Source: Chloroflexota bacterium (lineage in GTDB: Bacteria > Chloroflexota > Dehalococcoidia > UBA2979). From it: 64,000 bases of DNA. The notes under the pieces are model-generated. The model saw nothing but the letters and a program-made list of their open reading frames with translations, was not told where the DNA came from and did no database searches. Numbering within the stretch: the first letter of the stretch is position 1; each line of letters starts with the position of its first letter. A program made the translations under genes and the position numbers. The stretch is taken from assembly GCA_009839925.1 (NCBI GenBank), contig VXOS01000142.1, forward strand, positions 3,039 to 67,038. The letters are read 5' to 3'. Shown piece by piece: positions 41,267 to 64,000 of this stretch.

Positions 41267-41301
41267 AACGATGTAGGCGGCGAACCCAGTCAACCCTGCG
41301 A

Positions 41302-42275: not shown

Positions 42276-42429
42276 CGGGATTCTCCCTTGCAGTCCAGCA
42301 TGCCCAGCACGTTGCTGTGCGCCCCTCGGACGCCGCATCATCGGGGTCGGCATCCTAGCAGTTCGCCTCGGGGCGGTGACATGATACGGTTCAAATGTTC
42401 TAGAGGGAGCCAGAAGTTCCGAGGGTAAA

Positions 42430-48263: not shown

Positions 48264-48388
48264 TCGGCGATCGGCTGCCCAGCGTCGGAACAGCCCGAGT
48301 CAGGAACGGTGTAGGGCAGTGGCACTGTTACAGAAGACGTCATCGGGCTCTTCGATTGGCAAGCTCGATCGGCCACGCATAGGGGGAA

Positions 48389-51300
48389 CTAAGCTAGGCC
48401 GTCCGAGCAGACGATGCGGATCACCTCAGGCTCCGGCGGCCGGGCCGTCTCGGAATCGTCGGGGACGCTGAGGCGGTAGCGCTCGCGCAGGGCCTCGAGG
48501 CGGATGCGCAGCACTCGGCCCTCGAGCTGCAAGCTCCGAATCTCGCCGAGGGCGTTCTCGGCCGGCGGGGGCAGGTCGCCGTTGAAGATTCGACGGAGCA
48601 CTTCGAGACGCCGCATCTCAGCCGGGTCGTCGGCGGCGGCATGGACGGCAAGGTTGAGCTGCCGGGACATGTAGCGCCGAGCCCTCGTGTTGCGCGGCCG
48701 GCGGGCCCGGCCCAGCCGTTGCCCGAACTCCGTCCTGAACGCTTCGAACGCCGCCATCACGCGCTCGTTCGTGTCCTCCGAGAGCGCCTCCGCTGGCGTG
48801 TCGGGGGTGCACTCGGCGGCCGCGACAAACTGGGCGGGGCTGATGGGCCGGGGCTCGAGACCCGACCCCACGGCGTAGCAGCCATGCACCTCGCCGGCGC
48901 CGAGGAGCACCAGCGTCTCGCCGGGCACCGGGTCATCGAAGGCCGCCGGGGGCGCGGCCCGGATGTTCGCCGGCGACATTAGCGGAGCCTGCGCGCCCTC
49001 GAGAGGCATCACATCCTGCACGTAGATGTCGTCAGGGGCGTCCTCGCGCGCTGGCCTCGGCGCCCGCACGGCGAGAGCAGACCGGATGCCATCCGGCAGG
49101 GATGTGATGGTCTCCCAGAGCTCCGGGTTGTCTTCGCGGATCCGCTGGAGCAGGGCGACGGCGCGCTGGTGCGCGGCCACCTCGTCGAGCCCGTCGTCGG
49201 CCTCCGGCATGCGCTGCTCGCCGTAGATGCGGTACATCGCGTCGGCGTTCAGGCGCTCGGCCTCCGACAGGAGCCTGTTGTCGAGGCCGATCAAGTCGTG
49301 GAACGACTGGATACGGCGGCCCAGCCGCTCGGTCAGCTCCAGCCCCTCATCGACCGCGGTGTCCGGCCACATGCTGTGCAGGTCGATGACGTCGTGCTCT
49401 GTCCCGATGCGATCGACGCGGCCGAAGCGCTGGATCAGCCGCACGGGGTTCCAGTGGAGGTCGTAGTTCAGGACCCGCGCGCAGTCCTGCAGGTTCTGGC
49501 CCTCCGACACGATATCCGTGGCCAGCAGCACGCGGATCTCAAGGCCGGGAACCTGGCGCCCAGTGGTCAGGTTCGCGCGCGGCGAGAACCGGGTCACGAT
49601 GGTCTCGGCGTTGTCGCGGTTGCCGCCACTGAGGTGAGCGATCTCCGGGTCGTGGCCGCCGGGATTCAACTGCTCGTAGAGGTAGTCGATGGTCGTCTCG
49701 GCCTCGGAGAAGATGAGCACCTTGTCGGCACGGACCGCGGGCTGGTCGAGGAACTCCCGGAGCGCTCGGAGCTTGTCGTCGTCGTCCGGAGCGATGTCCG
49801 CTATCCGCTCGAAGAGGCCACCGAGCACCTCGTAGTCCGCGTCGAGATCGGCGATCCAGCGTTCGGTTTCGAAGTGCGCGGCAGGATACGCCGCACTGCG
49901 GGCGTGGCCGCGCGCCTCCTCCTGCTGGAGGACTTCCAGCAGTTCGTCGGCGTCGAACTCGTGACCCGCCAGGAGGCGGGTTGCCGTAGCGCCGACGGGC
50001 ACGAATCCGGCTTCCAGCGACTCCCGGAAGTTCCGGTTGCTATTGATGAGCGTTTCGAGCGTGGACCGGAACGCCGCGACGCTCGACTCGAGCCGCTTCA
50101 GGAGCAGCACCTTCATCAGGCCGGCGATCCGGTCCCTCGCGCGCAGCAGCCCTCGGTATTCGGCCCGCGTCTTGAAGTCGTCGCCCAGGTACTCGGAGGC
50201 GCGATACCGCGAGGCCTCGTGTTGTGCCAGCGCCTCCGTGATCTCCTGGAACTCCCCGGCCCGGGCGTACACGCGGTCAAGCCGGTAGTGGACATTCTCG
50301 AGCACTGGATCCGGGAAGCGCACGGGCTGGCCCCCGACCATCGCGGTATCGCCGTAGAGGTCGAGGATGTCGCGTCGCCGGCGGCGGATGAACAAGGGCG
50401 ACAGCACCTGCGTGATGTCGGCTCGCGGCACTGTTGGTTGTGATGGTGGCACCGGCGGCGTGCGTGTGGGGCGCTCTCGCTCCCAGGCCTCGTACTCGGC
50501 CTCGTAGTTGGTCTTTGCCGCGTGGTAGTCGAGCCAGCGTTCCGCGTTCCGGAAATACTCCTGCAGGTCGAGGGGCTCGATCGGCAGGCCGTGACTGGTG
50601 TCGTCCAGGAACAGGCTGAGCTGGCGGTAGATGTCCAGCGGGCCGAGGTTCTGGGGCGTGGCGCTGAGCAGCACCACCTTGTGGTCGCCGGACTCAAGGT
50701 ACTCCTCCAGGCCCGCGTAGCGCTGGTTTCGATTGCGGAAGTTGTGCGCCTCGTCCACCAGCACGGGGCCCCGGTCTGGGTACATCTGATTGAGGACGAC
50801 GCCTCGCTCGGGGGGCGCCGCGTCGATGTAGCGGCCGAGCTCCTCGTCGAACTCAGCCTCACCGGACGGGGCGATCATGCTGTGCGAGATCACCTCGGCG
50901 CCCAGCTGGAAGCGCTCGTTGAACGACTCCCACATCGGCTTCAGGCCGGCAGGGCAGAGGATGAGCGGGCGGCCGTCGTTCGGATAGCTGAACTGGAGCT
51001 GGCGCAGCAGCTCTGCGCCGATGAAGGTCTTGCCGAGCCCCACGACGTCGCCGATGTAGCAGCCGCCGTGGACATCGATCATCGCCAGACCGCGGCGTAC
51101 CGCGTCCAGCTGGAAGTTGGCCAGCTCACCGTCCTGCGGCTCGAGCGGTAGCTCGCTCGCCCCGGCGCCGCCGCTGTAGAGCTCGTGGAGGGCCTTCAGG
51201 TAGACGTGGTAGGGCGGCGTCTTCGCAAGCGCCCAGGAGAGCTCCAGCGTGACCTGCAACTCCTCGCTGATGTCCTCCGAGTCCTCCCAGAGGGCGTCGA

Positions 51301-51880
51301 ACCAGTCGCGCAGGGCGGCCATCTCAGCGTCGCCGGTGACCCGCACGTTGAGCTCGGTGTTGCCGCTGAAGCCGGCCAGCGTGAGGTTCGAGGAGCCGAC
51401 GACAGCCGAGCCGGGCTCGGCGTGGTCGTCGTACCAGCAGAGGTATGCCTTGGCGTGCAGCGGGCTGCGCCGGTAGGCCCGGACTTCCGCCTTGCCCGAG
51501 GCGACCATGTCCCGGAGCAGGCTCACCGCGTTCTGGGCGTCCTCCGTCTGCGGCAAGAGGGACACCCCGTCAGCGATGCGGTCGACGGAGTCCCGCGCCA
51601 CCGCGGCGCGCTCGCGCCGCTGCACAAGCCCATCGGAGTGCAGCCGCGCCCGCAGCGCGTCCGGCTGCTGTAGCCCCGCAGCGACCGCCTCGATCACCTG
51701 CCGGTCGGCACGGCCGACGAGGATGCGCACCTTGTCCAGCCGCGCCAGTTCTTCGCTGACCGCGCCGAAGCCAGACATGAAGAAGTAGCCGACGGCGATG
51801 TCGGCCCGGGCCGAACTACCGAGCATCTCCTGCAGCCGGGTCAGCAGGTCAGGGTCAGTGAAGGCGTGGAGGATGTTCAA
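48389..51880 (-). CDS. Phospholipase-D-family nuclease domain fused to SNF2/SF2 helicase (candidate ATP-dependent restriction or defence nuclease-helicase)
   Basis: 1,163 aa. N-terminal HKD motif PLHAKAYLC...VVGSSNLTLAG. Helicase motif I DVVGLGKT, motif II VLVDEAHNFRN, motif VI QRFGRVDRIG. Confidence 0.8.
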   Translation of the reverse strand: MNILHAFTDPDLLTRLQEMLGSSARADIAVGYFFMSGFGAVSEELARLDKVRILVGRADRQVIEAVAAGLQQPDALRARLHSDGLVQRRERAAVARDSVDRIADGVSLLPQTEDAQNAVSLLRDMVASGKAEVRAYRRSPLHAKAYLCWYDDHAEPGSAVVGSSNLTLAGFSGNTELNVRVTGDAEMAALRDWFDALWEDSEDISEELQVTLELSWALAKTPPYHVYLKALHELYSGGAGASELPLEPQDGELANFQLDAVRRGLAMIDVHGGCYIGDVVGLGKTFIGAELLRQLQFSYPNDGRPLILCPAGLKPMWESFNERFQLGAEVISHSMIAPSGEAEFDEELGRYIDAAPPERGVVLNQMYPDRGPVLVDEAHNFRNRNQRYAGLEEYLESGDHKVVLLSATPQNLGPLDIYRQLSLFLDDTSHGLPIEPLDLQEYFRNAERWLDYHAAKTNYEAEYEAWERERPTRTPPVPPSQPTVPRADITQVLSPLFIRRRRRDILDLYGDTAMVGGQPVRFPDPVLENVHYRLDRVYARAGEFQEITEALAQHEASRYRASEYLGDDFKTRAEYRGLLRARDRIAGLMKVLLLKRLESSVAAFRSTLETLINSNRNFRESLEAGFVPVGATATRLLAGHEFDADELLEVLQQEEARGHARSAAYPAAHFETERWIADLDADYEVLGGLFERIADIAPDDDDKLRALREFLDQPAVRADKVLIFSEAETTIDYLYEQLNPGGHDPEIAHLSGGNRDNAETIVTRFSPRANLTTGRQVPGLEIRVLLATDIVSEGQNLQDCARVLNYDLHWNPVRLIQRFGRVDRIGTEHDVIDLHSMWPDTAVDEGLELTERLGRRIQSFHDLIGLDNRLLSEAERLNADAMYRIYGEQRMPEADDGLDEVAAHQRAVALLQRIREDNPELWETITSLPDGIRSALAVRAPRPAREDAPDDIYVQDVMPLEGAQAPLMSPANIRAAPPAAFDDPVPGETLVLLGAGEVHGCYAVGSGLEPRPISPAQFVAAAECTPDTPAEALSEDTNERVMAAFEAFRTEFGQRLGRARRPRNTRARRYMSRQLNLAVHAAADDPAEMRRLEVLRRIFNGDLPPPAENALGEIRSLQLEGRVLRIRLEALRERYRLSVPDDSETARPPEPEVIRIVCSDGLA

Positions 51881-51892
51881 TGCTGGACCAGC

Positions 51893-52150
51893 CTAAGGTG
51901 GGTCGTTCCAGTGCGAGGCACGCCAGAGCACGAGTGCATCCACGACGCGCGCGCTGTGCTCCTCGGAGCCCCGATCCACGGCGGCGGCGTGGCGTCCGTC
52001 CCACCAATCATCTCCGACATCGAGCACGATACTCGTGACGGACACCCGCTCGGACTCGACGTCGTCGAAGCCGCTTTCGTACCCGTTCACAACCACGCGC
52101 AGGTCAGGCGGGTAGGTCGCCAGGAGCGTCATCAACTGTCGCACGTTCAT
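51893..52150 (-). CDS. Small hypothetical protein immediately upstream (12-nt gap) of the PLD-SNF2 gene
   Basis: 85-aa ORF with non-GC-artefact composition (MNVRQLMTLLATYPPDLRVVVNGYESGFDD...). Confidence 0.35.
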   Translation of the reverse strand: MNVRQLMTLLATYPPDLRVVVNGYESGFDDVESERVSVTSIVLDVGDDWWDGRHAAAVDRGSEEHSARVVDALVLWRASHWNDPP

Positions 52151-52563: not shown

Positions 52564-54750
52564 TCACGTGGGCGTACCGGGTCGGCGCTGTCGTTCTCTG
52601 GCGCTGCCGTCGATCCAGTCGTCGAGGGCCATCCGCTGTAGATCGCTGGGGACGAGATCTCCACCCTGAATCGCAGCGTTGAGTCGCCGACCTAGTGTCT
52701 TACCCGATTTGGTTCGGACACTCTCACTCACGGTGCGAGCCAACACGGACGTGTCGCTGACCGCCTCGAGAAAACCCGCTACGGGCCAATCCCGCTGCCC
52801 GAATGCCTCGACGAGTGCTCTTCTCAGGACTTGCCCTCTTCCGACCCCACCGCGACGGATGAGTCTCCGCAATGACCGCGGCGACCTTGGGAAGGCGCGT
52901 TTCAGCTTGTTCCAGTCATCATTACTGAGTCGACCTGCCTCGGCGGCGTCGTGGACGGTCTGGAAGACTTGGGCTACGAGGTGGCTCGCGGACGGGCGCT
53001 CATCGCCGAACCCAACGCCGAGTGCAAATGCACGAACCGAGGTCCCTGCAGCGGTGGAAGGGTCAGTTTGGTTGACGATCTCGCTCCAACGCTTGTTCTC
53101 AAGAGCACGGAGCCGCCGATCCCCCGGAGGGAACTGCTCGAGGACGAGCTTGGCGAGCGCTGTAGATGGCATCTCGCTCCTGCCAAGCCACAAAATGCCT
53201 CGCTTAGGATGTGTGCGCAGGGTTGCTGCCCATTCGGGACGCGCCGGCAGAACCTCCTCCTGATCCACGCGTTCCCCCAGCACGTCGAAGGCAGCTTCGA
53301 TCGCACGGCTCCCCAGTTCGCCAGCGAGGTCACTTAAGGCAACGGACGGCCCCGCAGCGATCACGGCACGCACTATCGCGACGATCTGAGAGTCATCCAA
53401 GTCAGCTCCACGGAGCCAGGCAAGAGCACGGGGCTTAGCGTTGTCCGATCTCCAGAGTGTCGGGTCCGCGACAATCGAAGGCCTGAGATCGAGTGCGCTC
53501 GACGTGACCACATCTGGCCACGACCCAAGGAGCTCAACAAACGTCTCGGTTTCGAGATCTTCGGCCGCGAGCCGCACGAGCGCATTGCGCGCATCCGCTG
53601 TCGCGAACGTTGGGAACTCTCGCAGGAACACCCGCAACTCTGGTTCATCGACTGACATCGCTTGCAGGAACGCGCTGCTCAGGGAGCGCCACCATCCGGG
53701 GAAGGCAGATCCGGCCGCCGAGCGCGACAGGACGGAGAGCCGATCCAGACTTGTGAGCGGTTCAGTGAGGCTCGATCCGGATTCGTCGAGTGCCCAAGAC
53801 TTCAATGCCTCGGCGGCCGCCCGTCGCGGATACCACGCACCGACCCTCTCCAGCAGCGACTGCCAATCAGTGCGATCCGACAGGCCCCGAGCGATCGAGT
53901 GAAGTTCTGCTACACGCCCGAACGACAACCGGTCGGGGGCAAGTCGCGGTCCGAATTGCCACGCGAAGTTCCTCAGCTCGCGCAAGGCGGCGGCATCTGG
54001 TCGAAGACCGGTGGCCCATGTAGCTGAGTGTGAGTGAGCGCGGTGCCCAGCACCCAGGAGGATCACCTCCTGAGCGGCGAGCCGCTCGATCGTCGTTGAG
54101 CGATCTTGAGGGATGACCTGTAGATCGAAGGGGCGGCCAGCGACTTGGCGGAAGGATAGAGCTCCAGTGCAGAACGAGAAGTGCTCGCGGAGCTCAGGCC
54201 ACTGAATGGACCAGACATCAAGCAGGACTTCCTCGTAGTCAGCGGCGGATGCCGCCGGCAGGAGAATCGCGTGATTCGCACTGTCGCTCTGGTACAGAGC
54301 TCCGATGATATCGGCTAGACGGATGTTGTTGTCAGTCGACTGCGAGCGTGTAGGCGGATGTGGAGGCTCAGCGATATCGTGTTCATCGATCTCAAGCGGG
54401 CTCCCGTACTCAATCGCCTGATCGACGGATCGCGGCCTCCGGAACCAATCCGCCAGACTCGCTACATTCGGCAGCGCGATCTGCTCAGGCGTGAGAAGCA
54501 ACGTATGGGTCCACACCGAACCCGGCCTTGCGCCACCGTCCGCCAACCACGTCCGCGCAAACGCGTAGAGGCGTTCGCCCGGCACCGGGTATCCCGATAT
54601 GTAGCTCTCGAACCCGCGAGTCCTAGAGGCCGACCCGGAGAGATCAGACAGCTCGAGGAGGGCTCGCTCCCCCTCCCTGGATAGCCGACGAGAACTCGCC
54701 AATAGGTCGTGCCCGCTGCGGTACCCATGGAGGGCTTGAGCGACTCGCAT
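52564..54750 (-). CDS. Large (729 aa) hypothetical protein, last gene of the tandem-GTPase operon
   Basis: Start MRVAQALHGYRSGHDLL chosen 22 nt after the GTPase stop (alternatives 54789 or 54822). Mostly alpha-helical, Leu/Ala/Arg-rich. No known motif. Confidence 0.5.
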   Translation of the reverse strand: MRVAQALHGYRSGHDLLASSRRLSREGERALLELSDLSGSASRTRGFESYISGYPVPGERLYAFARTWLADGGARPGSVWTHTLLLTPEQIALPNVASLADWFRRPRSVDQAIEYGSPLEIDEHDIAEPPHPPTRSQSTDNNIRLADIIGALYQSDSANHAILLPAASAADYEEVLLDVWSIQWPELREHFSFCTGALSFRQVAGRPFDLQVIPQDRSTTIERLAAQEVILLGAGHRAHSHSATWATGLRPDAAALRELRNFAWQFGPRLAPDRLSFGRVAELHSIARGLSDRTDWQSLLERVGAWYPRRAAAEALKSWALDESGSSLTEPLTSLDRLSVLSRSAAGSAFPGWWRSLSSAFLQAMSVDEPELRVFLREFPTFATADARNALVRLAAEDLETETFVELLGSWPDVVTSSALDLRPSIVADPTLWRSDNAKPRALAWLRGADLDDSQIVAIVRAVIAAGPSVALSDLAGELGSRAIEAAFDVLGERVDQEEVLPARPEWAATLRTHPKRGILWLGRSEMPSTALAKLVLEQFPPGDRRLRALENKRWSEIVNQTDPSTAAGTSVRAFALGVGFGDERPSASHLVAQVFQTVHDAAEAGRLSNDDWNKLKRAFPRSPRSLRRLIRRGGVGRGQVLRRALVEAFGQRDWPVAGFLEAVSDTSVLARTVSESVRTKSGKTLGRRLNAAIQGGDLVPSDLQRMALDDWIDGSARERQRRPGTPT

Positions 54751-54772
54751 CGCCTCGCCACCGCGACTGGTA

Positions 54773-55633
54773 TCACCCCGTATCGACATCGACGACCCAC
54801 CGGAGGGGCTCGGTAATGTCATGCGATTCTGCGTTCGCGTCGCGCGCGACGCGTATCCGCTCAGAAGCGCTGAGGAGGGACTTGAGGCGATCGCTGTCCT
54901 GAGGGAGCTCACCGCCCTGCGCGGAGACTCCGTAAACGCGAACATCAAAGCGCGAGTGGTCGTGGCTTCTCAGGAACTGATCAACCAGTGGGAGCTCCTT
55001 GGCCAACCACTCTGACGGGGTGCCTTGTTCTTCCACCAGATCCCACGCAGACACGATCACGGCGAGCCTGAAGTGTCCCGCCGCAATCTCCGTGCAAAGA
55101 AGCTGGAGTAGGTCGACGAGCTGCACGTCCGTCGGTACTTGCTCAGCGCTCCATTCACTCTCGGTTGGCGCGTCCGCCGCGCCAGATTCCTGAGATGGCA
55201 GTGCTTCCTCGCCCGCGATCTCCATTGCGTCGAGAATCGGCCATGGCTCGCTTGTCTCCTTCGGGTGAACGAAGAGCAACACGCCCGTGGAATCGTGCAC
55301 GTAGTCCCGGAAGCTAGTTGGCCATTGGCGATCCGCAAGGCTCCGCTTGATTGATTCGCCGGCGAGGTCGGGTACGACGATCTCAGTGATGGAGTCCGCG
55401 TCGCTGGGCTTGATTCTGATCGTGGCAATCTGCTCGGCGTCGATACTCGTTCGGTTGGCCACCTCGAACCGTAGCCAGCGACCCGTCAGGTCGTTCAGGT
55501 GGTCCACGGGCGCCTCCAGAACTTCTAGCTCGAGGGCGCCATCAACATCCCGGCTAACGATGACTTGCCACAAGGCTGCGAGGAACGTCGTCTTGCCGGA
55601 TGACGGCAGACCGACGAGCAACGCTTGGTGCAT
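54773..55633 (-). CDS. TRAFAC-class P-loop GTPase (GTPase 2 of tandem pair)
   Basis: 286 aa. G1 GLPSSGKTT, G3 VPDLAGES, degenerate G4 VSAWD. Start shares 1 nt with the upstream stop (TGATG). Confidence 0.7.
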   Translation of the reverse strand: MHQALLVGLPSSGKTTFLAALWQVIVSRDVDGALELEVLEAPVDHLNDLTGRWLRFEVANRTSIDAEQIATIRIKPSDADSITEIVVPDLAGESIKRSLADRQWPTSFRDYVHDSTGVLLFVHPKETSEPWPILDAMEIAGEEALPSQESGAADAPTESEWSAEQVPTDVQLVDLLQLLCTEIAAGHFRLAVIVSAWDLVEEQGTPSEWLAKELPLVDQFLRSHDHSRFDVRVYGVSAQGGELPQDSDRLKSLLSASERIRVARDANAESHDITEPLRWVVDVDTG

Positions 55634-56529
55634 CAGTCGACCCTCTGCGGCGGGCGAGACCGAAAGCGATCGAATTCGCGCACCTCTTGGACCCCGGGGG
55701 GCAGAGAGGCCTCAAGCGGTCGGCGAGCGGAACGAAGCCAGATTCGGAGGACTTCATCCAGGTTCTTCCCGCGGCACAGCTCGGAGCCAGATTCCGGACG
55801 AGCCGCTGTCCAAATGAACTGAAGCTCACCCGTGCGGGCCTCGTGCTTGCGGCGGATCTCCTCTTCGAACCTCTTGACGAAGTCCTCGAGTTGATCAGCG
55901 CCGTCTCCCCTCAACGCTGCGTCCCACTTCGTGTAGATGACCGACTTCACAGCTCTATCGACGCCCGCGTCGAGAATGCTCTGGATCAACATTTCGGTTT
56001 CGTGTTGAGCCTCTTGCCGCAGTGCTTGTGTTCCGAAGCGCTCGCCATCCACAAGGAAGGCGATGTGGTCAGCCCGGTAGAGAAACGGGTGTGCTCTGGC
56101 TGTCTGTACGTCGTCCCGCATCGCTCGGAACTCCTCGCCTGGCCAATCGGCGATCAAGATGTCTCGCGCTGGCGCCACGCCGTCGTGGGCGGCGAGTCGG
56201 AGATGCAAGAACACGTCGCGGTCAGCGAGAGGCGTCCTAGGCGTCTCTGGGGTCGCCCGGCCGGAAGCTATCCGCGCATGATGCGAGCGCTGCTCGAACC
56301 CGTGAAGCGTTCGGGACCACGCGTATTGATGGCCAGCAAACGGGCCCTGAAGGAATTTGCCGTATATCTCGGTAAGCAACGTCGTCTTCCCGACGCCAGC
56401 GAGGCCCACGGGGATAATGACTCGCGTTACTGAGGAACGGGTGGTCTGGTTCGCCTCCTCGATTGTCAGTGCGTCCGCAGACGGTAGCGCGACGAAGCCC
56501 GCCGCAGTGTCGTTCGGAGTCATGGCCAC
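55633..56529 (-). CDS. TRAFAC-class P-loop GTPase (GTPase 1 of tandem pair)
   Basis: 298 aa. G1 GLAGVGKTT, G3 IADWPGEE, G4 YTKWD. Confidence 0.7.
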   Translation of the reverse strand: MAMTPNDTAAGFVALPSADALTIEEANQTTRSSVTRVIIPVGLAGVGKTTLLTEIYGKFLQGPFAGHQYAWSRTLHGFEQRSHHARIASGRATPETPRTPLADRDVFLHLRLAAHDGVAPARDILIADWPGEEFRAMRDDVQTARAHPFLYRADHIAFLVDGERFGTQALRQEAQHETEMLIQSILDAGVDRAVKSVIYTKWDAALRGDGADQLEDFVKRFEEEIRRKHEARTGELQFIWTAARPESGSELCRGKNLDEVLRIWLRSARRPLEASLPPGVQEVREFDRFRSRPPQRVD

Positions 56530-56541
56530 GTCCTGCCCCAG

Positions 56542-57654
56542 CTAGGAGTTGCCAAGGCACCGGGTGAGCAACAGTTCCCGTAGGAGCTGCAGCCCGACTT
56601 CCTCCGGAGCGTCAGCGAAGTCCGCCCCGAGCCCCGTCCGGTCCCGAAGTGCCTGATTCCAATCTCCAGCAGCAGGTGTCTCGCCCATGATCCGCAAGCC
56701 AGCAAGCAGCGGCAAGACGTGGCCTGGGGCCTCTTCAGGTAAGGCGGCCGTCGCCGAGTCTCGCCAGTCCGGGGTGGTTGCCTCCATGGCTTCCGCGACG
56801 GTGAGTTGTATTGGCGCCTCCCCTTCGGCAGACGCCAACGCGTGTCGCAGATATTCGATCGAAGCCGTCGGCGGCACGTCGTGTGTGACAAGGCTTGCCA
56901 GCTCATAGGCTGAAGGGAGGACCAGTCCCTGGGGTGACGCTTGTCCGCGTGGCCTGCTCAACTCTCGTGAGTAGTCGTTGATGACCCACCAGAGAATATC
57001 GTTCTCTTCCGAGAGCGCAGCTAGGCTCTGGACTAGTTGATTGCGAGCAGTGACGTCGGACGCCGCAACGTTCTCGAGGCGCTTCGCGAGGTTCGAAACA
57101 GCGCCGTTCAGGGCTGTCACCGCTGCTGCGTAGTCATTCTGACCGAGCGCCTCCTCGACCTGGTTGGACAGCTTGGTTCCCACACCCATCTGAGCAGGAG
57201 TAAGGGCGGACGTATGCAGTGGTTCCTCGTGGGGCCGGATGCTCACCGCTCGACGGCTGAGATAGTCGTGCGCGAGGGAATCCAGATCGGGTGTCGCTTC
57301 CGGTGCGCGGTCGCCGAATGTGCCGGTAGCCACGCAGAGCGCTGCCGTATCGGTAGCCAGTCCTTCCTCTTCGAACAACGCGACGATCGTCGAGGCCGCG
57401 AGAACCTGCATTTCCGCGTCGTTGTCGATCGTCGAGAACGCTACATCGCCGCTTTGGAGCACCCCAGATATCTCCCGAAGCCACTCCTTCGGAGCCGATG
57501 CAGCCGCAACGGCGCACGCCGAGAGACGGAGCGCCCTCTGTGGCTCCGTGGTCCAGCGAGCCAATGCCTCGACCGCCCCCCATCGGCTCTCGGCGACCTC
57601 GCTCGTCAGACCTACGTTCACACCTCCGAGCCAGTAGGAAAAATGTTGATGCAT
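56542..57654 (-). CDS. Hypothetical 370-aa protein (GTPase-operon component)
   Basis: All-alpha composition. Start ATG shares 1 nt with the upstream stop. Confidence 0.5.
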   Translation of the reverse strand: MHQHFSYWLGGVNVGLTSEVAESRWGAVEALARWTTEPQRALRLSACAVAAASAPKEWLREISGVLQSGDVAFSTIDNDAEMQVLAASTIVALFEEEGLATDTAALCVATGTFGDRAPEATPDLDSLAHDYLSRRAVSIRPHEEPLHTSALTPAQMGVGTKLSNQVEEALGQNDYAAAVTALNGAVSNLAKRLENVAASDVTARNQLVQSLAALSEENDILWWVINDYSRELSRPRGQASPQGLVLPSAYELASLVTHDVPPTASIEYLRHALASAEGEAPIQLTVAEAMEATTPDWRDSATAALPEEAPGHVLPLLAGLRIMGETPAAGDWNQALRDRTGLGADFADAPEEVGLQLLRELLLTRCLGNS

Positions 57655-58262
57655 CAGGTTGCTGCTCCAAGTCCATCCGGCGGTCGGTCGGGGATACCCT
57701 TGCTCTCTTGAGCCGTCTCGCTCCAGAGCTCCGCGAGCCGATTAGCTGCGCGGGCTCGCTCGAAGACCGCACGCGCAAAGCCCTTGCGAGAAAGAGCGTC
57801 GTCTCCCTCATGGAAGAGGTCAAGACGGACTGCGATGGCGCGACGTGTCGTGCTCGGCAGTGCCAGGAAAGCGTAGGCAAGCCTCGTCCGGGGCGGGGCG
57901 GCCTCAAGCTGCTCCTGCAAACTCTGGATCGCATCCTCTAGCGCTGCGCACACGCGCTCTGCCGATTCTGCAACGACGGCAGCAACACTAGGCGAGACGC
58001 TTCGGCCGTGGGCTACGGGGTCCGTCGCTCCGAGCACGTCGCGAATCGCGCGCACAGTCTTCGTGTCAAAGCCACTCTGAGACTTCAGCACGTTGAGGGC
58101 GGACTCGGATGATCCGAGGCGATGCCTATCGGGAGCGAGGTAGCTCGCCAACCACTCGAGGCGTGCCTCAATCGCCCTCCGAGCGAGGACCAGAGCCACC
58201 TCCGGCTGGTCGTCCAGTTCCAGATCTCGGAGTTGGAATGAGGGGAGCTGCGGTCTAACCAT
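57654..58262 (-). CDS. Hypothetical ~202-aa protein (GTPase-operon component)
   Basis: Start MVRPQLPS overlaps the upstream membrane-protein stop by 8 nt. A longer alternative start lies at 58346. Confidence 0.45.
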   Translation of the reverse strand: MVRPQLPSFQLRDLELDDQPEVALVLARRAIEARLEWLASYLAPDRHRLGSSESALNVLKSQSGFDTKTVRAIRDVLGATDPVAHGRSVSPSVAAVVAESAERVCAALEDAIQSLQEQLEAAPPRTRLAYAFLALPSTTRRAIAVRLDLFHEGDDALSRKGFARAVFERARAANRLAELWSETAQESKGIPDRPPDGLGAAT

Positions 58263-58629
58263 CCCCGTCCTCGTCTTCCCACTCCGAGCCCAACGGAGGA
58301 AGCTCGAGGGTCGGCACCGCCTGCGTGATGCCCTGCTCCGCAGCACGACCCGACTCGCGCGTCCCTTCAGTGTTGAATTCGACTACGCCCCCGCCAGGGA
58401 GCAGCAGCCTTTGGGCGAATGGAAGGAGCGGTGCGACAAGCAGTCCCGCGAGCAGCATGAGGGTTTCGGTCGTCGGCTCGACTTCCTTACCGAAGTCGAG
58501 CGAGCGTATGACCACCGACGCGGCGAACAGAGTTACGGCCAACGCCCACACGAAGTAGATCCACCCGAGGAGCTTCCTGAGCCATCTAGGGAATTCGGCT
58601 AGTCTTAGCACGTTTTCCGGCTCTCCCAC
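58255..58629 (-). CDS. Small membrane protein (2 TM), first gene of the GTPase operon
   Basis: 124 aa. LLGWIYFVWALAVTLFAASVVI and LMLLAGLLVAPLLPF hydrophobic helices. Confidence 0.45.
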   Translation of the reverse strand: MGEPENVLRLAEFPRWLRKLLGWIYFVWALAVTLFAASVVIRSLDFGKEVEPTTETLMLLAGLLVAPLLPFAQRLLLPGGGVVEFNTEGTRESGRAAEQGITQAVPTLELPPLGSEWEDEDGDG

Positions 58630-58808
58630 TCGTTCCCGAGTCTACGTGGCACCTGAATGCCCTGGCTAGGCGTACTCACCACGGAGGAGTGATCCAGAGC
58701 TGGCGGAAGCGAGGTCGCCGAGCGAGCAGTGGGGACGACGCTATGGTACCACCCGAGCCATCCGGCGGGGGAGTGCATACGTGCGCGCTTCGTCGCGTAG
58801 ACGAACTC

Positions 58809-59249
58809 CTAGGCCCAACCCCGCCGCAGGATCTGGATGAAGCGCTCCGCCTTGAACGCCGGCTGCTCGGAGGTGCGATCCCAGAAGCAACTGATCTTCC
58901 CCAGGGGCCACCGCACCGCCCGGAGCCAGCGAGCGGCCCGCGACGAGCTCGCAGGTACTCGGCTTGCCGGGTCAGGACAGGTCCTTCCGCGCAGGTCGGG
59001 CCAGAGTTCGGGCGGGAGGATCCTGGCGATGGCGGCCCTGATTCGCTCGTCGAGGTCGCGCCGCTCCTCGTGCGCCCAGGCTTGGGGGCCGCCGTCTGCG
59101 GCGACGACGCCGAGGCCGAGATCGACGAGCAACCGAAGCGTCTTGGCGTAGTCGCTCTCGCGGAGCCGCGCGAACTCGGCTATTGCGGCGTGCTGAGCCT
59201 CCGAGATACGCAGGCCGACGTGGTGCGGGTACCGGGACTGCCGTGTCAT
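58809..59249 (-). CDS. Putative ribbon-helix-helix-like DNA-binding protein upstream of the GTPase operon
   Basis: The N-terminal 45 aa ([36 protein letters not shown]) resemble CopG/RHH. The remainder is low-complexity, so the true C-terminus may be shorter. Confidence 0.35.
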
Positions 59250-59261
59250 TTCGTCAGGCTA

Positions 59262-59471
59262 TCACTGGTTATCGGCAGCGTGCGCTACAAGCTCCGGGCA
59301 CGGCCCTAGCGGATCTCCGCTGGGTGGAGTCGTAGTGGCGGGCCCGGCGTGGTCGGCCAGCAGCTGTTCTCTCTCGGCGCCGAGCGATCGGAGCGTTGCC
59401 AGCTGGCGAGAAGGCCCGTCGAGGGGCTGCCCAGCGGCCCAGGAACTCCCGCGCGCGCGGATCGCCGACAC
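59262..59471 (-). pseudogene. Fragmentary duplicate of the 253-aa gene at 60426-61187
   Basis: Encodes ...[20 protein letters not shown]..., paralogous to ...[21 protein letters not shown]... in the downstream gene. About 95 bp of near-identical DNA (59361-59455 vs 60961-61055). Confidence 0.4.
59361..59455. repeat. ~95-bp direct repeat, copy 1; copy 2 at 60961-61055
   Basis: GCTCTCGGCGCCGAGCGATCGGAG(C/G)GTTGC...AGGAACTCCCGC is about 85% identical between the two loci, 1.6 kb apart. Confidence 0.55.
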
Positions 59472-59586
59472 CTACCACGCGTGGCGGGGCGCGGAGGGCG
59501 CGGGCGGATACCCCGACGAGCCGGGCTTCTGCAAGTCAGCGGAGCCGTAGGGGGCGCTGACCGCAGCTGCGGCCAGTCTCGGCGTG

Positions 59587-60429
59587 TCACGCGGATCCTT
59601 CGAGTCGCGGGGTTTCGAACGACACGCCGAGTTCACACCTGGCCAGGAGGACCTGCTCGCGGACGCTGTCCCACTGTTGGAAGGCCTGCTCGATTGTCAG
59701 ACGGCTCTTCGCTCCGGAGGGACTTTGACCGCTCGCCGGATTGATGTAGCCGGGGAGGGAAACGGTTGGCCTGGCGAAGCGCGCATCCGGGCGTGCAGCA
59801 TCACGGCAGGGGACGTACGAGTACATCCCCTTCATTGGCTTGTCGAAGGTGGCGCCCCGGTAGAGTGTGAACCGATACTCGCCGCTCCCGTCGGTAGTGA
59901 GAGACTCGATGGTGCAGACGCGAAACGCCTCGTCGGTCTCGGGAGGGTGGTGCGGGGCGTAACATTCGGCCTCCTCGACGACGAATACCGTGTCGAGAAC
60001 GAACTCTCCGCGAAGCTTCGAGCCGAAGAGGATCACTGATCCCGGCGTCAGCTCCTGCAGGGCGGACGGGTTCTTGTAGCTGGTCAGCTGCTTGCAGTTG
60101 CTGTATCGGAAGGCCTCGCCGAAGACCCATGGATCCGTGTTCAGGCGGTAGTTCGATGTCGGCGGGCGCTCCCAGACCGGAACCTGGAGTGCCCGTGGAA
60201 GCTGCCCCTCGCGCGGCCACCGCTCAACGACCCAGGAGGGTGCCTCCCACTCTCCCCAGAAGACGAGGGGCTTGCCCCTTGCCTGCTCCTGCGAGTCCAA
60301 GGAGCGCCCGGCGCTGAGGAGGAACTTCCGCCCGTGATCGCCCGTGTTCCACGGCATCCGGTCGCCATGGCGAAGGATGCGCTCGCCGCCCGGATGCGGG
60401 AACTGCACCACGAAGACCGAGGCGCTCAT
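59587..60429 (-). CDS. Hypothetical 280-aa protein, ATGA-coupled to the upstream 253-aa gene
   Basis: Start MSASVFVVQF. No recognisable motif. Confidence 0.5.
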   Translation of the reverse strand: MSASVFVVQFPHPGGERILRHGDRMPWNTGDHGRKFLLSAGRSLDSQEQARGKPLVFWGEWEAPSWVVERWPREGQLPRALQVPVWERPPTSNYRLNTDPWVFGEAFRYSNCKQLTSYKNPSALQELTPGSVILFGSKLRGEFVLDTVFVVEEAECYAPHHPPETDEAFRVCTIESLTTDGSGEYRFTLYRGATFDKPMKGMYSYVPCRDAARPDARFARPTVSLPGYINPASGQSPSGAKSRLTIEQAFQQWDSVREQVLLARCELGVSFETPRLEGSA

Positions 60430-61187
60430 GAGCTGCTGCTTCTCTGCTGTCGTGCCACGCTCGCGACCCACGCAGCGAGGCGGCTCTTGAACTCATTGGT
60501 CACACCGCGACTGCCCTGCAGGTTCGTCGACCAGCCCACGTACTGCACCCCTTCGCCGTCCCCCATGTAGAGCGAGCACGTCGTGTGGCCCATCGGCATC
60601 GTTCCGCAGTCGCTCAGCTCCACCAGCCCGACGGACTTGACGTGGTCCAGCACCTGGCGGCCGTTAAGCAAGACAAGGGTGGTCTTGCCGAAGGTGAACA
60701 GCGCCCGGAGGTGTGGCAGCCCCTCGGCCAGGAGCTGCTCCCTCGTGCGCTCGGCCAGCTCGCCCCAGATTGGGTCCGTCGCCCATTGAACAAGATCGAG
60801 GTGGCAGGCGCTCCCGGTGTAGTAGCTTGCGCCGACGCTGGCGCGGAGCACCATGTCGAGCGAGTTGAACCACCGGCCGTAGGGGTTCCTGTCTGCGTCG
60901 AAATAGCGCGCACAGTCCTCGACGACCTCCAGCACCTGCGCGTCGGTGAGTGATTCGAGACTCTCGGCGCCGAGCGATCGGAGGGTTGCGAGCCGGCGAG
61001 ACGACCCGTCGAGGAGCTTCCCGCGGCCTAGGAACTCCCGCAAGCTCGGATTGATGCCCAGCGTGGCCACGGTGGCGACGAACGGATCCCCGAACGCGAC
61101 CACAGGCGTCGATTCCGGTACGACCTCCGCGACCGGTGCCTCTCGGCGGACCATGTCGACGAGGTACCTCGGGATAGGTGGTGTCAT
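60426..61187 (-). CDS. Hypothetical 253-aa protein, possibly uracil-DNA-glycosylase-superfamily fold
   Basis: VVAFGDPFVATVATLGINPSLREF resembles the MUG/TDG GINPG motif. A weak second motif lies near WSTNLQGSRG. Low confidence on the fold. Confidence 0.5.
   Translation of the reverse strand: MTPPIPRYLVDMVRREAPVAEVVPESTPVVAFGDPFVATVATLGINPSLREFLGRGKLLDGSSRRLATLRSLGAESLESLTDAQVLEVVEDCARYFDADRNPYGRWFNSLDMVLRASVGASYYTGSACHLDLVQWATDPIWGELAERTREQLLAEGLPHLRALFTFGKTTLVLLNGRQVLDHVKSVGLVELSDCGTMPMGHTTCSLYMGDGEGVQYVGWSTNLQGSRGVTNEFKSRLAAWVASVARQQRSSSS
60961..61055. repeat. ~95-bp direct repeat, copy 2 (inside the 253-aa gene)
   Basis: See copy 1. Confidence 0.55.
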
Positions 61188-61278
61188 CGTCAGCGCCTTG
61201 CTAGGCGGTCACTACCCGCGATGCGGTGGTCCATCTCCGCTGGCAGCATGATGACGCTGAAGACGTCAAAGAGGTGGC

Positions 61279-63978
61279 TCAGGGCAAGCTGTGCTCGACA
61301 GCCGCCGTCTCCTCTGTTGTCAGGCCGTACAGGTCGTAAACGAGCCCGTCTAGCGTGCGCTCCCACTCGTTCACGTCGGATCCTGCATCCGACGCCTTTG
61401 CGTCGATGATGCGGTCCACCAACTCCACGAACGGCCGCTGCTCCTCTACGCTAATCCGCGGCACAGGGATTGGGGCGACCGTGAGGCGCTCCCACTGGAT
61501 GAGCCCCATACCTGTGGTGAATGCGGTGCGTTCCATGAACCACTTGACAAGCGTACTGTTGAGAATCGCGGCAAGGTACTTCAGGGAAGGACCCGTAAGA
61601 ACATACCCTTTCTGGTTGCAGAACTCGTCGCTGTCCGAGTACGCGAACCGCCCCTCCGGTGACATAGTCGCCCAGAAGAGTTTCGGATTCTCGAAGGCCC
61701 GATATGCACCCGATCTGTAGTAGTCAACCTGAAGTTGCCACCAGTCATACGGTACGCGCCCCGTCCGAGGATTCGCGCCACCTCGGCGGCTCGCGAGTCG
61801 CTCTTTGTGAGTGAGTAGGTGCCTGCGTACTGCCGGATAGTCGTGCTCAGCCACCCCACTGTGACTGTAAATCAGCCACTTGTCCGCCCACTCCGCCTGC
61901 CAGCGACGGATGTCGCGACCCCGCAGAATCGGCTTGATGATCTCCGCCGACTTAGGATCCTCGACGACGAGGGCGTCTCGAGCGGCACTGTCGATGATGA
62001 ATGCCTCGTTGTACCCGGTCTTGATGCCATAGTTGAGCTTGACGCCGTCCCACTGCGCGAGCGGCGTCCCACGTGCACTCATCTTCGCCATCACCTCGTG
62101 CTCGGTGAGCGAGAGGATGCTCCACGGTGCCTCGGGTTCCGTGCGAATGAGGCCCCAGTCCTCCTCGGGTGGCGGGAAGGCGACTCCGGGCACTCGATCC
62201 ATGTCGACTGCGGGGAAAGGAGTAGACTCGCCTCCGGTGCGAAGCAGCAACACACCGCTGTCGACGATCGCGCTTTCGAAGACGTCCTTGCCGAGGTCGA
62301 GCCAGCGCAGCGGCTTGTGACTTCCGGCGAAGAAGCGGCGCAGGCGCTTACCGTAGGCCGCGCGCATCCAGCTGTTGGAGGTGATGTAGGCCAGTACCCC
62401 ACCGTCGGGCTTGAGCAGATCGCAACCGCGCTCGTAGAACAACTGGTAGATGTCACCGCTCCGAACGAAGGTCGTGTAGCCGGCGTCGCGATAGAGGTTG
62501 GCGAGCCGCCCGCCGTCGCGCTGCAACTGGTGGTACGGCGGGTTGGCGAGCACAATGTCAAAGCCGCCACCACGTGCGTCGCGGGCCTCGAACACCTCCG
62601 GGAAGGCCGAACGCCACTCGACGCCGCCGCCGGCGTCCGCCGCTCCCGAGCCGCCGTAGCGCTCCCGCAACCTGCGGTTGATTTCCGCGATCTGTGCGCG
62701 CAGAGCCGCCTTGGCGGGTCCGGCGAACTCGTGCATGTAGCGCGCCTTGAGCTCCTGCAGCTCCACTGTCTGGTCCCCGAAAGTCCCTTGGACGCCGCCC
62801 TCCCCTCCGTGCGCCGCCAGCAGGCTGTCCCCTGTCAGGATCCCTAGATCGAGGTTTGGTAGCGGCGGAACGGGCGGGGGGCCGTCGTACTCGATTGCGA
62901 GCGACAGCCACAGCCGCAACTGCGCGATGTGGACAGCAAACGGATCGATGTCCGCGCCGCGCAGGTTGCGCTCGATGATCTCGAGCTTGAGCGTATGGAG
63001 CGACTTGTCGTCTGCGCCGACGTTGAACAGCACGGTCTGGAGTTCGACCAACTCCTGCATCATCCCGAGCAGGTAGGCGCCGGAGCCGCAGGCCGGGTCG
63101 ACGACCGTAACCTCGCTCAGCGCGTCCGCAACCTTGCGCGCCGCCGGGACGTCTATGTCGTCGGTACGGTGCTTGTCCACGAATGCGGCGATCGCGTCGG
63201 GTGTTAGTCCGGTGTCGCGCGCATCGAGGTAGCCCTTGAGCGCCTCGCGGCACATGAACGACACGACCTGCCGCGGCGTGTAGTAGGAGCCGGACTGCTG
63301 GCGGCCCGTCACCAGTTCCTCGAAGACCTTCCCAAGCATCTCGGGATCGACGGCCACCTCGATGTCGAAGGGAGTCGACTCCATCACGGTGAAGTTGAAG
63401 CGCTCGAACAGGCTGGTTAGCACAGCCTCTACGGCGTCGTCGGGCACCGTGACGCCCTCGCGATTGTCGAGGTCGCCCTGCTCGAACAGACCGCCGTTGA
63501 GGAATTGGACCTCGCCGATCAGCGGGTTCGTTCCGTCCGTCAAGTCGCGGGAGTCGGGGTTGTTGAGCCCCACAAAGAACAGGGTCCTGAGCCGACTGAC
63601 GTGGAAGTTGTCACCCTCGCGGTGGTTCTGCCGGTAGTCGTTCCACAGCGCCTTGAGGTAGTCCGTGTCACCGCGGAACTTGAGCCAGCCCTTGCGCTGC
63701 AGGAAGTAGACGAACATCAGCCGGTTGAACAGCGTCTGGACGAACAGCCGACGCTCCTCGTCCTCGCCCTCGGCAAACCCCGTCACGCTCTGCTCGACCT
63801 GCTCGAAGACCCGCTTGTACTCCTGGAAGAACCGCTTGGTGACGGGCTCGACATCGAAGGCCTCGGTGAGTGCAACGCGGACGCTCCGGGTGTCCCGTGG
63901 ACCCCTGTAGATCTTCGAGAGCTGTTCGACGGGAGTTCGATTGTGCTCGCCACGCTCGAACACGAGGCGCCGCAGCAC
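61279..63978 (-). CDS. N6-adenine DNA methyltransferase, PglX/Eco57I-like (type IIG/BREX-type gamma-class). The N-terminus may extend beyond the window end.
   Basis: 899+ aa. N-terminal helical FxxxFNRLMFVYFLQRKGWL region. SAM motif VVDPACGSGAYL. Catalytic LANPPYHQL. The large C-terminal region serves as target-recognition domain. No stop occurs before the window edge. Confidence 0.85.
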   Translation of the reverse strand: MLRRLVFERGEHNRTPVEQLSKIYRGPRDTRSVRVALTEAFDVEPVTKRFFQEYKRVFEQVEQSVTGFAEGEDEERRLFVQTLFNRLMFVYFLQRKGWLKFRGDTDYLKALWNDYRQNHREGDNFHVSRLRTLFFVGLNNPDSRDLTDGTNPLIGEVQFLNGGLFEQGDLDNREGVTVPDDAVEAVLTSLFERFNFTVMESTPFDIEVAVDPEMLGKVFEELVTGRQQSGSYYTPRQVVSFMCREALKGYLDARDTGLTPDAIAAFVDKHRTDDIDVPAARKVADALSEVTVVDPACGSGAYLLGMMQELVELQTVLFNVGADDKSLHTLKLEIIERNLRGADIDPFAVHIAQLRLWLSLAIEYDGPPPVPPLPNLDLGILTGDSLLAAHGGEGGVQGTFGDQTVELQELKARYMHEFAGPAKAALRAQIAEINRRLRERYGGSGAADAGGGVEWRSAFPEVFEARDARGGGFDIVLANPPYHQLQRDGGRLANLYRDAGYTTFVRSGDIYQLFYERGCDLLKPDGGVLAYITSNSWMRAAYGKRLRRFFAGSHKPLRWLDLGKDVFESAIVDSGVLLLRTGGESTPFPAVDMDRVPGVAFPPPEEDWGLIRTEPEAPWSILSLTEHEVMAKMSARGTPLAQWDGVKLNYGIKTGYNEAFIIDSAARDALVVEDPKSAEIIKPILRGRDIRRWQAEWADKWLIYSHSGVAEHDYPAVRRHLLTHKERLASRRGGANPRTGRVPYDWWQLQVDYYRSGAYRAFENPKLFWATMSPEGRFAYSDSDEFCNQKGYVLTGPSLKYLAAILNSTLVKWFMERTAFTTGMGLIQWERLTVAPIPVPRISVEEQRPFVELVDRIIDAKASDAGSDVNEWERTLDGLVYDLYGLTTEETAAVEHSLP

Positions 63979-64000
63979 GGGCCGTGTACCAGTGAGGTCG

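Follow-up and report, generated by a model that had tools for sequence, protein, structure and literature searches.

We analyzed a stretch of 64,000 nucleotides (nt) from a Chloroflexota bacterium of the class Dehalococcoidia (assembly GCA_009839925.1, contig VXOS01000142.1, positions 3,039 to 67,038), called the window below, in which one gene codes for a protein of 1,163 amino acids (aa) that joins a phospholipase D (PLD) nuclease to an SNF2-clade ATPase. This protein, PLD-SNF2, is probably the restriction subunit of a two-gene, methylation-based, ATP-dependent system resembling restriction-modification (R-M). A Type IIG-like methyltransferase encoded upstream would be the partner that carries the specificity, and the 9.4 kb that separate the two genes in the window would be unrelated cargo. 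The features at the center of this reading are as follows.

48389..51880, minus strand: PLD(HKD)-SNF2-C-terminal domain motor-nuclease of 1,163 aa, proposed restriction subunit (open reading frame, Pfam, PADLOC, NCBIfam, conservation in the 28-sequence alignment)
51287..51814, minus strand: single-copy HKD/PLD nuclease domain, residues 23-198 (PLDc_2, motifs, invariance)
49271..51133, minus strand: SNF2-clade SF2 ATPase core, residues ~250-870 (motifs, Pfam, conservation; Foldseek on a low-confidence model)
48392..49093, minus strand: conserved C-terminal domain, residues ~930-1163 (alignment of homologs)
61279..64000, minus strand: Type IIG-like N6-adenine methyltransferase that has a specificity domain of the TaqI_C type, proposed to be the subunit for modification and specificity (Pfam, PADLOC, motifs)

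The methyltransferase gene lies 9,399 nt upstream of PLD-SNF2 in the same orientation, and the genes for GAP1-N1, DO-GTPase1, DO-GTPase2, GASH, and GAAD intervene. A preliminary description of the window had correctly pointed out this distance and the GTPase operon in between, and had proposed a split R-M system as one explanation, a proposal that gained support from comparison with related loci. A genome scan for PLD-SNF2 found 536 loci, the best 80 of which were compared; all of these 80 were from Chloroflexota, mostly metagenome-assembled genomes (MAGs) of Dehalococcoidia. Twenty window proteins were searched against the 80 loci by tblastn, within ±10 kb where the contig allowed. In 73 of the 80 loci a methyltransferase homolog was found upstream of PLD-SNF2, sharing its strand in all but two of these 73 (71 loci), with a gap between the two genes ranging from -4 bp to 6.6 kb (median 1,779 bp; shorter than 500 bp in 5 of 71). 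Apart from PLD-SNF2 itself, the methyltransferase was the only window protein with widespread matches. A STAND NTPase, a 486-aa protein (o486), and a few other window neighbors had matches in one or two loci each, and the GTPase genes, an 85-aa open reading frame (ORF) next to PLD-SNF2, and the other ORFs of the gap had no tblastn match in the 80 loci. Of the seven loci with no methylase match, at least three (L003, L040, and L080) were short of upstream sequence, and L003, L040, and L006 retained small ORFs of the methylase cluster. When all ORFs of the 80 loci were clustered all against all, no further conserved neighbor was detected within 10 kb, and large ORF families were present in at most a handful of loci. 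The commonest gene family of the gap, found in 15 of 71 gaps, looked PIN-like by eye and had no Pfam match.

The pairing was also observed far outside Chloroflexota. A tblastn search of plasmids returned 184 records, all below 60% identity, seven of which were opened; their homologs were full-length and about 30% identical. The methylase gene was adjacent on at least five of these seven plasmids, in either gene order, in Actinomycetota, Cyanobacteria, Thermodesulfobacteriota, and Archaea. In Rhodococcus pR8C1, PLD-SNF2 was directly followed by a gene annotated as 'DNA methyltransferase', and Pelobacter pPRO1 had the same arrangement with its methyltransferase gene. In Synechocystis pSYSX, VapBC was embedded in the unit: PLD-SNF2 was followed by a small gene for a hypothetical protein, the gene of a VapC toxin, and then the methyltransferase. 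The methyltransferase came first in Halorussus, separated from PLD-SNF2 by one small gene, and in Thermococcus, where three genes including an AbiEii toxin intervened. The remaining two plasmids were ambiguous: PLD-SNF2 was followed by a gene for a 524-aa hypothetical protein and an IS3 transposase gene in Microbacterium, and by a gene for a 1,341-aa 'RNA-binding domain-containing protein' in Nostoc punctiforme. No DUF499-type ATPase was annotated in the unit of the seven plasmid loci. In L081 and L093, the stop and start codons of the two genes overlapped.

Both partners were alignable across this distance. PLD-SNF2 of Halorussus aligned to columns 26-1145 of the 1176 columns of the window-family profile, and that of Synechocystis to columns 4-1075. 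The plasmid methylases matched Type IIG models of PADLOC, the Synechocystis enzyme matching one of them over its full length, and residues 61-383 of the Chloroflexota methylase of L004 aligned to positions 44-358 of the same model. Because the N-terminus of the L004 enzyme and the Synechocystis enzyme match one model, the partner methylases appear to share an N-terminal region too. All these comparisons suggest that the pairing is old and widespread.

The ORF of PLD-SNF2 starts with a TTG codon, which aligned with a conserved Met of the homologs (MNILHA...). The motifs are HAK (residues 142-144) and GSSN (162-165) in the nuclease domain, and GLGKT (281-285), DEAHN (376-380), SATPQN (406-411), and QRFGRVDR (817-824) in the ATPase. 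In an alignment of 28 sequences, the window protein and 27 homologs with 66-92% identity, H142, K144, S163, S164, N165, G281-T285, D376-N380, and Q817/R818/F819/G820/D823/R824 were invariant, as were G162 and the SATPQN motif. R821 and V822 of motif VI were nearly invariant, and conservation extended along the entire length, including residues ~930-1163. The preliminary description had recognized an N-terminal PLD nuclease and an SNF2 helicase in this single polypeptide, and this architecture was confirmed by the motifs and their invariance in the sequences. The nuclease motif, which had been read as HxK(x)4D...GSxN, was partly different: H142, K144, and GSSN were present, while the Asp was absent and W149, invariant in the family, was found in its place, making this a variant HKD motif. 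There was one HKD motif per chain.

In Pfam, PLD-SNF2 matched PLDc_2 at residues 23-198 (40.6 bits, cut-off 27) and Helicase_C (53.7 bits, cut-off 23.5), and was just below threshold for RE_NgoFVII (22.6 versus 23.8) and SNF2-rel_dom (19.1 versus 24.9). The best PADLOC model was an unnamed 'HKD+Snf2' profile, PDLC01075 (5e-51, residues 13-860). The NCBIfam model NF042964, which describes the Gao_RL/MANTIS PLD anti-phage protein, matched residues 16-865 with 157 bits (6.9e-46), against a cut-off of 1100. By these matches PLD-SNF2 is a homolog of PLD-helicase effectors of the MtsD type, not an equivalog of them. Its closest profile and fold matches were SNF2-clade proteins. The best sequence matches in PDB were to RapA, confined to residues 783-836 (motifs V-VI), and the RapA equivalog model NF003426 gave 50.8 bits against a cut-off of 576, a score on which membership in the RapA type was rejected. 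Kinship with RapA/HepA, loss of the catalytic His or Lys, and lack of co-occurrence with methyltransferases were the results that the preliminary description had held to count against its proposal; what we found was this low RapA score, invariance of both residues, and strong co-occurrence.

The full-length AlphaFold2 (AF2) model, made with the alignment of 28 sequences, was poor (predicted local distance difference test (pLDDT) 59, predicted template modeling score (pTM) 0.33). The C-terminal domain, residues ~930-1163, was modeled as a short beta-sheet and a helical bundle, with AF2 pLDDT of about 70-87 at residues 980-1140, and had no Pfam match. A Foldseek search of PDB with this low-confidence model placed SauUSI at the top (E=1.3e-6, template modeling (TM) score 0.10-0.14), followed by ALC1, SWR1, RapA, and ZorD; TM-scores in this search were just 0.1-0.2, and we used it as weak support.

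Relatives of PLD-SNF2 were numerous. Among 8,000 candidates, 4,205 were related at E<=1e-10, and the top 120 shared 65-92% identity and had a length of about 1,164 aa. An exhaustive search of representatives of 50%-identity clusters found 1,454 clusters at E<=1e-30 in bacteria and archaea, many of them full-length (1,040-1,170 aa) at 30-40% identity. The records that we opened annotate the protein as 'helicase-related protein'. A phage origin was considered and rejected, as partial helicase matches alone were obtained, in 7 of 50,697 phage records. Several genomes possessed two copies (L001/L002 on OY839116.1, L006/L012, L017/L050, L013/L069, and L052/L066), and two tandem ORFs of the PLD-SNF2 cluster were present in L036, at 9992-13486 (1,164 aa) and 14151-17726 (1,191 aa).

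The methyltransferase ORF was called at 61279..63978, and its frame continues with no stop codon to base 64000, so the 5' end of the gene is cut by the window edge. Pfam matches were PF07669 Eco57I (109.8 bits), TaqI_C (44.9 bits), and MmeI_Mtase (39.6 bits), and motif I, VVDPACGSG (DPACGSG), and motif IV, NPPY, were intact. In PADLOC it matched REase_MTase_IIG with 2.7e-136, and also the DrmMI and PglX models weakly. By its domains and motifs the enzyme fits the Eco57I/MmeI-type gamma class of N6-adenine methyltransferases with a C-terminal specificity domain.

The N-terminal domain of the methylase lies off the window and was seen in full-length homologs. In these, the conserved N-terminal domain (~130-210 aa) matched neither MmeI_N nor another Pfam family nor a PDB sequence, and a PDB profile search matched the methylase and specificity half only (M.BseCI, CamA, PglX/BrxX, and motif I of MmeI). 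The invariant residues listed for the N-terminal alignment were E37, D40, D106, N113, and Q118, and no conserved (D/E)xK was visible by eye in its consensus. A full-length methylase of the same lineage was found at the same locus on contig L091, where it was called as 1,237 aa. This call (5438-9151) extends ~207 aa beyond the family consensus start and has a weak HTH_31 match at residues 74-118; the extra N-terminus could be a regulatory helix-turn-helix domain joined to the methylase, or its start could have been over-called. The ~5.4 kb upstream of the methylase in L091 contained a gene for a 229-aa protein with weak matches to sigma-70 region 4, an integrase-like gene, and two large genes, one with no Pfam match and the other truncated by the locus end and not scanned. 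Neither DUF499 nor DUF3780 was detected among the four genes scanned upstream of the methylase in L091, one of which was a 5' fragment of the methylase ORF itself.

The two proteins differed in their conservation. Median identity to the window protein was 67% for PLD-SNF2 and 57% for the methylase core (first 560 residues). When the specificity region (residue 601 onward) was compared in 55 loci, 12 had no match, 12 had a short match, and the rest had 22-65% identity. The specificity domain is hypervariable and PLD-SNF2 far more conserved, a selection pattern like that of R-M systems. A clear example was the pair L001 and L002, in which the two PLD-SNF2 proteins were 97% identical and the methylases aligned over the core alone (76%), not over the C-terminal specificity regions. 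A tyrosine recombinase (Phage_integrase) was present in the gap of seven loci. In five of them (L017, L027, L031, L042, and L064), a minus-strand ORF beside the recombinase repeated part of the methylase C-terminus in inverted orientation, with 43-70% identity; in the other two (L038 and L052), the corresponding ORF had no match to the called methylase. A recombinase with an inverted cassette is the layout of a specificity-switching shufflon. No inverted specificity cassette was found beside the window's own methylase. Milman et al. 2023 (PMC9881135) listed coding sequences (CDSs) of Type II R-M that have a PLD+SNF CDS as neighbor and show programmed inversions.

The genes between the two partners in the window are listed below.

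51893..52150, minus strand: conserved protein of 85 aa with an ATG start, cargo (98 relatives, 0 of 80 loci)
52564..58346, minus strand: GAP1-N1 double-GTPase conflict system, embedded cargo (Pfam PF19976, PF19994, PF19993, PF19975, PF20012), consisting of the next five genes
52564-~54789, minus strand: GAP1-N1
54773-55633, minus strand: DO-GTPase1
55633-56529, minus strand: DO-GTPase2
56542-57654, minus strand: GASH
57654-58346, minus strand: GAAD
58347..61278: additional cargo separating the GTPase system from the methylase, with three ORFs: 60426-61187 and 59587-60429 on the minus strand, and 58689-59309 on the plus strand

In other loci, the gap contained genes for PIN (VapC) and ParE toxins, DUF4365, Abi_alpha/DUF2806, DUF6338, and transposases. 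L002 was informative, since its PLD-SNF2 was 92% identical to that of the window and it shared the convergent downstream genes for the STAND NTPase (96%) and the 486-aa protein (87%); its gap contents nevertheless differed from those of the window, indicating cargo turnover between close relatives. Third-position guanine-cytosine (GC) content was 0.90 in PLD-SNF2, 0.82 in the methylase, and 0.67-0.73 in the cargo genes, and these lower values are consistent with a separate origin of the cargo. The gap is, on this comparison of loci, best described as a cargo bay, an insertion hotspot for other defense modules that would stand outside the system.

The GTPase operon, which the preliminary description had placed between the two genes, was absent from all 80 loci and is likewise best taken as embedded cargo, not as part of the system. 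The GAP1-N1 system was predicted to be self-contained, with DO-GTPase1/2, GAP1, GASH, and a GAAD-linked effector (Kaur et al., PMC7159879). It was described as commonest in proteobacteria, bacteroidetes, and spirochaetes, with chloroflexi among the main hosts of GAP1-N2 (PMC7159879); the system found here, at 52564-58346 of a Chloroflexota genome, is of the GAP1-N1 type. The ORFs in 58347..61278 had no match in Pfam, PADLOC, or NCBIfam and no homolog in the 80 loci; contigs L090 and L091 have gene calls for them. Two of them, 60426-61187 and 59587-60429 (253 aa and 280 aa), are co-oriented with a 4-nt overlap and are the next genes downstream of the methylase. The positions 59371-59462 and 60961-61051 form a direct repeat of ~92 nt with 84-89% identity, one copy within ORF 60426-61187 and the other downstream of ORF 59587-60429, which may be a remnant of duplication or insertion.

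The 85-aa ORF has a good Shine-Dalgarno-like sequence, AGGAAGGTGG, upstream, and its end is 12 nt from the TTG start of PLD-SNF2. The preliminary description had listed this small ORF together with the fusion, and we considered it as a translationally coupled, conserved partner; this was rejected by its absence from 80 of 80 homologous loci and its differing contexts elsewhere. The protein had 98 relatives with identities down to 43%, one of which, an annotated protein of a Chloroflexi MAG, was 100% identical, and the family possessed an invariant RVVVNGYE.G.D core. No match was obtained in Pfam, NCBIfam, or PADLOC, and a model of the protein (pLDDT 67) had no fold match in PDB (best E=1.9). 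Among nine homolog contexts, four were between hsdM and hsdS of Type I R-M systems and one was beside hsdR (the R-M-associated loci were L084, L087, L088, L089, and L086); in two of the four hsdM-hsdS contexts, the start of the gene overlapped the hsdM stop by 4 nt. The remaining four were toxin-antitoxin, transposase, or otherwise variable regions. The 85-aa gene may be an R-M-associated accessory gene; its contexts suggest a hotspot passenger that favors R-M operons and not a specific partner of PLD-SNF2.

Scanning 48100-52700 for promoters and terminators gave nothing informative. GC content in the window was 0.62-0.75, falling from ~0.71 to ~0.65 near 32 kb. A defense island, 31537-48263, starts at this fall, with ORFs of 357 aa and 486 aa of no assigned function flanking the STAND gene. 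Its assigned genes are as follows.

31537-32730: CoiA-like protein
32809-36660: TPR-GreAB-C-PIN protein
36835-37401, minus strand: dCTP deaminase
42430-46806: Avs/STAND NTPase with an N-terminal nuclease-like domain

The closest characterized relative of PLD-SNF2 is MtsD, the effector of MANTIS (Gao_RL/GAO_29). Restriction by MANTIS needs the nuclease and ATPase activities of MtsD and specificity directed by the methyltransferase; MtsD resembles SauUSI and is a dimer that has a single PLD site, and DNA binding by the methylase depends on the AAA+ loader MtsA, MtsB being also required (bioRxiv 10.64898/2026.09.23.753747). In the mechanism that we propose, the methylase would mark host DNA at a short motif set by the variable TaqI_C-type domain, probably asymmetric by analogy with MmeI-type, BREX, and MANTIS enzymes, and would recognize unmodified sites on incoming DNA. 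With a single HKD motif per chain, two PLD-SNF2 chains would have to come together to build a single active site, as they do in Nuc, BfiI, SauUSI, and MtsD; we infer this dimerization from MtsD and SauUSI. The dimer would then move along double-stranded DNA by its SNF2 ATPase and cut it.

Several points weigh against this mechanism and the two-gene reading behind it. The 80 close loci are all Chloroflexota and hence are not independent samples. That the pair methylates and cleaves DNA, and that its two proteins interact physically, is in each case something that we infer. The structural likeness of PLD-SNF2 to SauUSI is weak evidence because the full-length AF2 model is poor. The analogy with MANTIS may not transfer, since MtsA and MtsB, both required there, are absent here. 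In addition, PADLOC, with its REBASE-type family models, calls the methylase a 'Type IIG restriction enzyme-methyltransferase', and it might therefore carry its own nuclease. The main uncertainty is whether such a methylase could load and signal in the absence of MtsA and MtsB, and the second is whether its N-terminal domain is a nuclease.

The last point leads to the rival that the two genes are independent modules that travel together, an autonomous Type IIG R-M enzyme with its own N-terminal nuclease and an autonomous nuclease-helicase of the SauUSI-like (Type IV) or Nhi/Hhe-like kind. The layout of PLD nuclease, SF2 motor, and C-terminal domain is that of SauUSI, the top Foldseek match; the methylase family is labeled REase_MTase_IIG; and both genes are found in defense islands, where unrelated systems cluster. 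We regard this rival as unlikely. Against it stand the co-occurrence in a fixed order in 73 of 80 loci, 71 of them on the same strand, and the recurrence of the pair at ~30% identity in different bacterial phyla and in archaea, where the stop codon of one gene in some cases overlaps the start codon of the other. Neither DUF3427 nor another modification-reader domain was detected in PLD-SNF2, a methylation-dependent nuclease beside an active methylase would risk self-targeting, and full-length methylase homologs had no match to the MmeI_N nuclease domain. It is very unlikely, in turn, that the pair is an incomplete or dispersed DISARM or MANTIS/BREX-related type-2 system with its other components (DrmA/DrmB, or a DUF499 ATPase and DUF3780) elsewhere or past the window edge. 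The region upstream of the methylase is indeed off the window, the best profile matches of PLD-SNF2 include 'HKD+Snf2', DrmD, and the Gao_RL-type PLD anti-phage protein, and the methylase weakly matches DrmMI and PglX; the scores, however, are far under the equivalog cut-offs (157 versus 1100, 152 versus 610, and 20 versus 133), the scanned genes in the ~5.4 kb upstream of the L091 methylase gave no DUF499 or DUF3780 match, and no conserved third gene was found within 10 kb in the 80 loci or annotated in the seven plasmid loci.

A role outside defense, as a RapA/HepA-like factor of transcription or repair or in the maintenance of integrative elements, would account for the RapA matches in motifs V-VI (residues 783-836) and for the integrases, serine recombinases, and transposases common near the loci. 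It is hardly compatible with the RapA score of 50.8 bits against 576, an invariant nuclease motif, an obligatory methylase partner, hypervariable specificity domains, a defense-island context, and multiple divergent copies per genome, and we consider it extremely improbable. A bolder form of the two-gene reading would make the pair a distinct, unnamed class of two-component ATP-dependent restriction, in which a MANTIS/SauUSI-like motor-nuclease is steered directly by a Type IIG-like methylase with no AAA+ loader. Its genes would frame a cargo bay, and the embedded modules, such as the GAP1-N1 system and the 85-aa family, would be coupled back-ups firing when restriction is inhibited. PrrC, which resides within the EcoprrI locus and fires as a back-up on inhibition of the restriction system, is the model for this idea. 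We think it improbable in this full form and prefer the two-gene system with unrelated cargo.

If the pairing is functional, it would be a minimal methylation-based motor-nuclease defense, with one methylase and one PLD-SNF2 effector, compared with MANTIS, BREX-related systems, and DISARM. It would then offer a simple system for studying the handover of unmodified sites from a methylase to a translocating nuclease without an AAA+ loader, and would add a widespread R-M-like family (1,454 clusters), now annotated as 'helicase-related protein', to defense catalogs. The gap, as a turnover hotspot, is useful for finding new systems, for example the 85-aa family and the ORFs beside the methylase. 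The finding is of moderate interest, as the system is widespread and simpler than its characterized relatives, and is not categorically new.

Compared with known systems, the pair is most similar to MANTIS, with which it shares an HKD/PLD nuclease at the N-terminus of an SF2 helicase-like ATPase, an effector gene adjoining an N6-adenine methyltransferase that carries specificity, and a predicted dimer with a single PLD active site. It differs in that two of the four parts, the DUF499 AAA+ ATPase (MtsA) and DUF3780 (MtsB), are missing, in that PLD-SNF2 exceeds MtsD by ~260 aa and has an additional, conserved domain at its C-terminus, and in that the methylase belongs to the Type IIG family resembling Eco57I/MmeI. 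DUF499 was not found among the window ORFs scanned, the scanned L091 genes, or the plasmid annotations, the 80 loci had no conserved large neighbor, and no small ORF scanned had a Pfam match to DUF3780. BREX-related type-2 systems are defined by a DUF499 ATPase, a methylase, an HKD-SNF2 helicase, and DUF3780 (Rakesh & Krishnan, NAR 2026, PMC12839542).

Class 1 DISARM consists of the SNF2 helicase DrmD, the PLD nuclease DrmC, DrmA, DrmB, and DrmMI. The pair resembles it in having an SNF2-clade ATPase and a PLD nuclease alongside an N6-adenine methylase, and the DrmD models matched the C-terminal helicase half; the nuclease and ATPase are, however, fused in one chain here, and the core proteins DrmA and DrmB are absent. 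The profile check for DrmD and DrmC suggested in the preliminary description placed both far under their equivalog cut-offs: NF038317 (DrmD) gave 152 against 610, NF038318 (DrmD) 83 against 950, and NF038319 (DrmC) 20 against 133. Neither DrmA nor DrmB (DUF1998) was identifiable among the PADLOC-scanned window ORFs or as a conserved neighbor in the 80 loci, the sole match of a DrmA model being weak (3.1e-20) and falling on the helicase half of PLD-SNF2 itself. On these scores and the lack of DrmA/DrmB, the fused DrmC+DrmD identity that had been suggested for the protein, and with it DISARM membership, was rejected.

SauUSI (Type IV, PDB 7CLG) has the same order of PLD nuclease, SF2 motor, and C-terminal domain, was the top Foldseek match, and is a dimer with one PLD site, a feature to which we liken PLD-SNF2. 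It acts alone and cuts DNA with modified cytosine via its DUF3427 reader, whereas PLD-SNF2 is tied to a methylase, has no DUF3427 in Pfam, and had no PDB sequence match to SauUSI at E<0.01. In CglI and NgoAVII, a PLD nuclease also works with an SNF2-clade translocase. There, the two are separate subunits (R, with PLD and B3; H/N, the SNF2-like ATPase), DNA is recognized by the B3 domain, and the methylase is a C5 enzyme; here, the activities are fused, and specificity resides in a domain of the large N6-adenine methylase that accompanies them. Pfam detected no B3 domain in PLD-SNF2, and the CglI/NgoAVII membership put forward in the preliminary description was not supported. In the Hma/BREX-related type-1 systems and Type I R-M hotspots (PMC11232893), unrelated defense genes are similarly inserted between methylase and helicase genes; these systems differ in having an SNF2 helicase with a C-terminal PD-(D/E)XK nuclease and a DUF499 ATPase as the core.

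The two-gene arrangement has been noticed before in passing only. The listing of Milman et al. 2023 (PMC9881135) has Type IIG (Cj0031-like) R-M genes next to a PLD+SNF CDS, including programmed inversions in the methylase gene, apparently the same arrangement, which we liken to ours by description and not by sequence; it is a table entry for two genomes, not analyzed or named. From the gene content and profile scores, we rate the methylase and PLD-SNF2 as an apparently unnamed two-gene variant of the known defense systems built from a methylase and a motor-nuclease, distinct from DISARM and from the full MANTIS/BREX-related type-2 systems.

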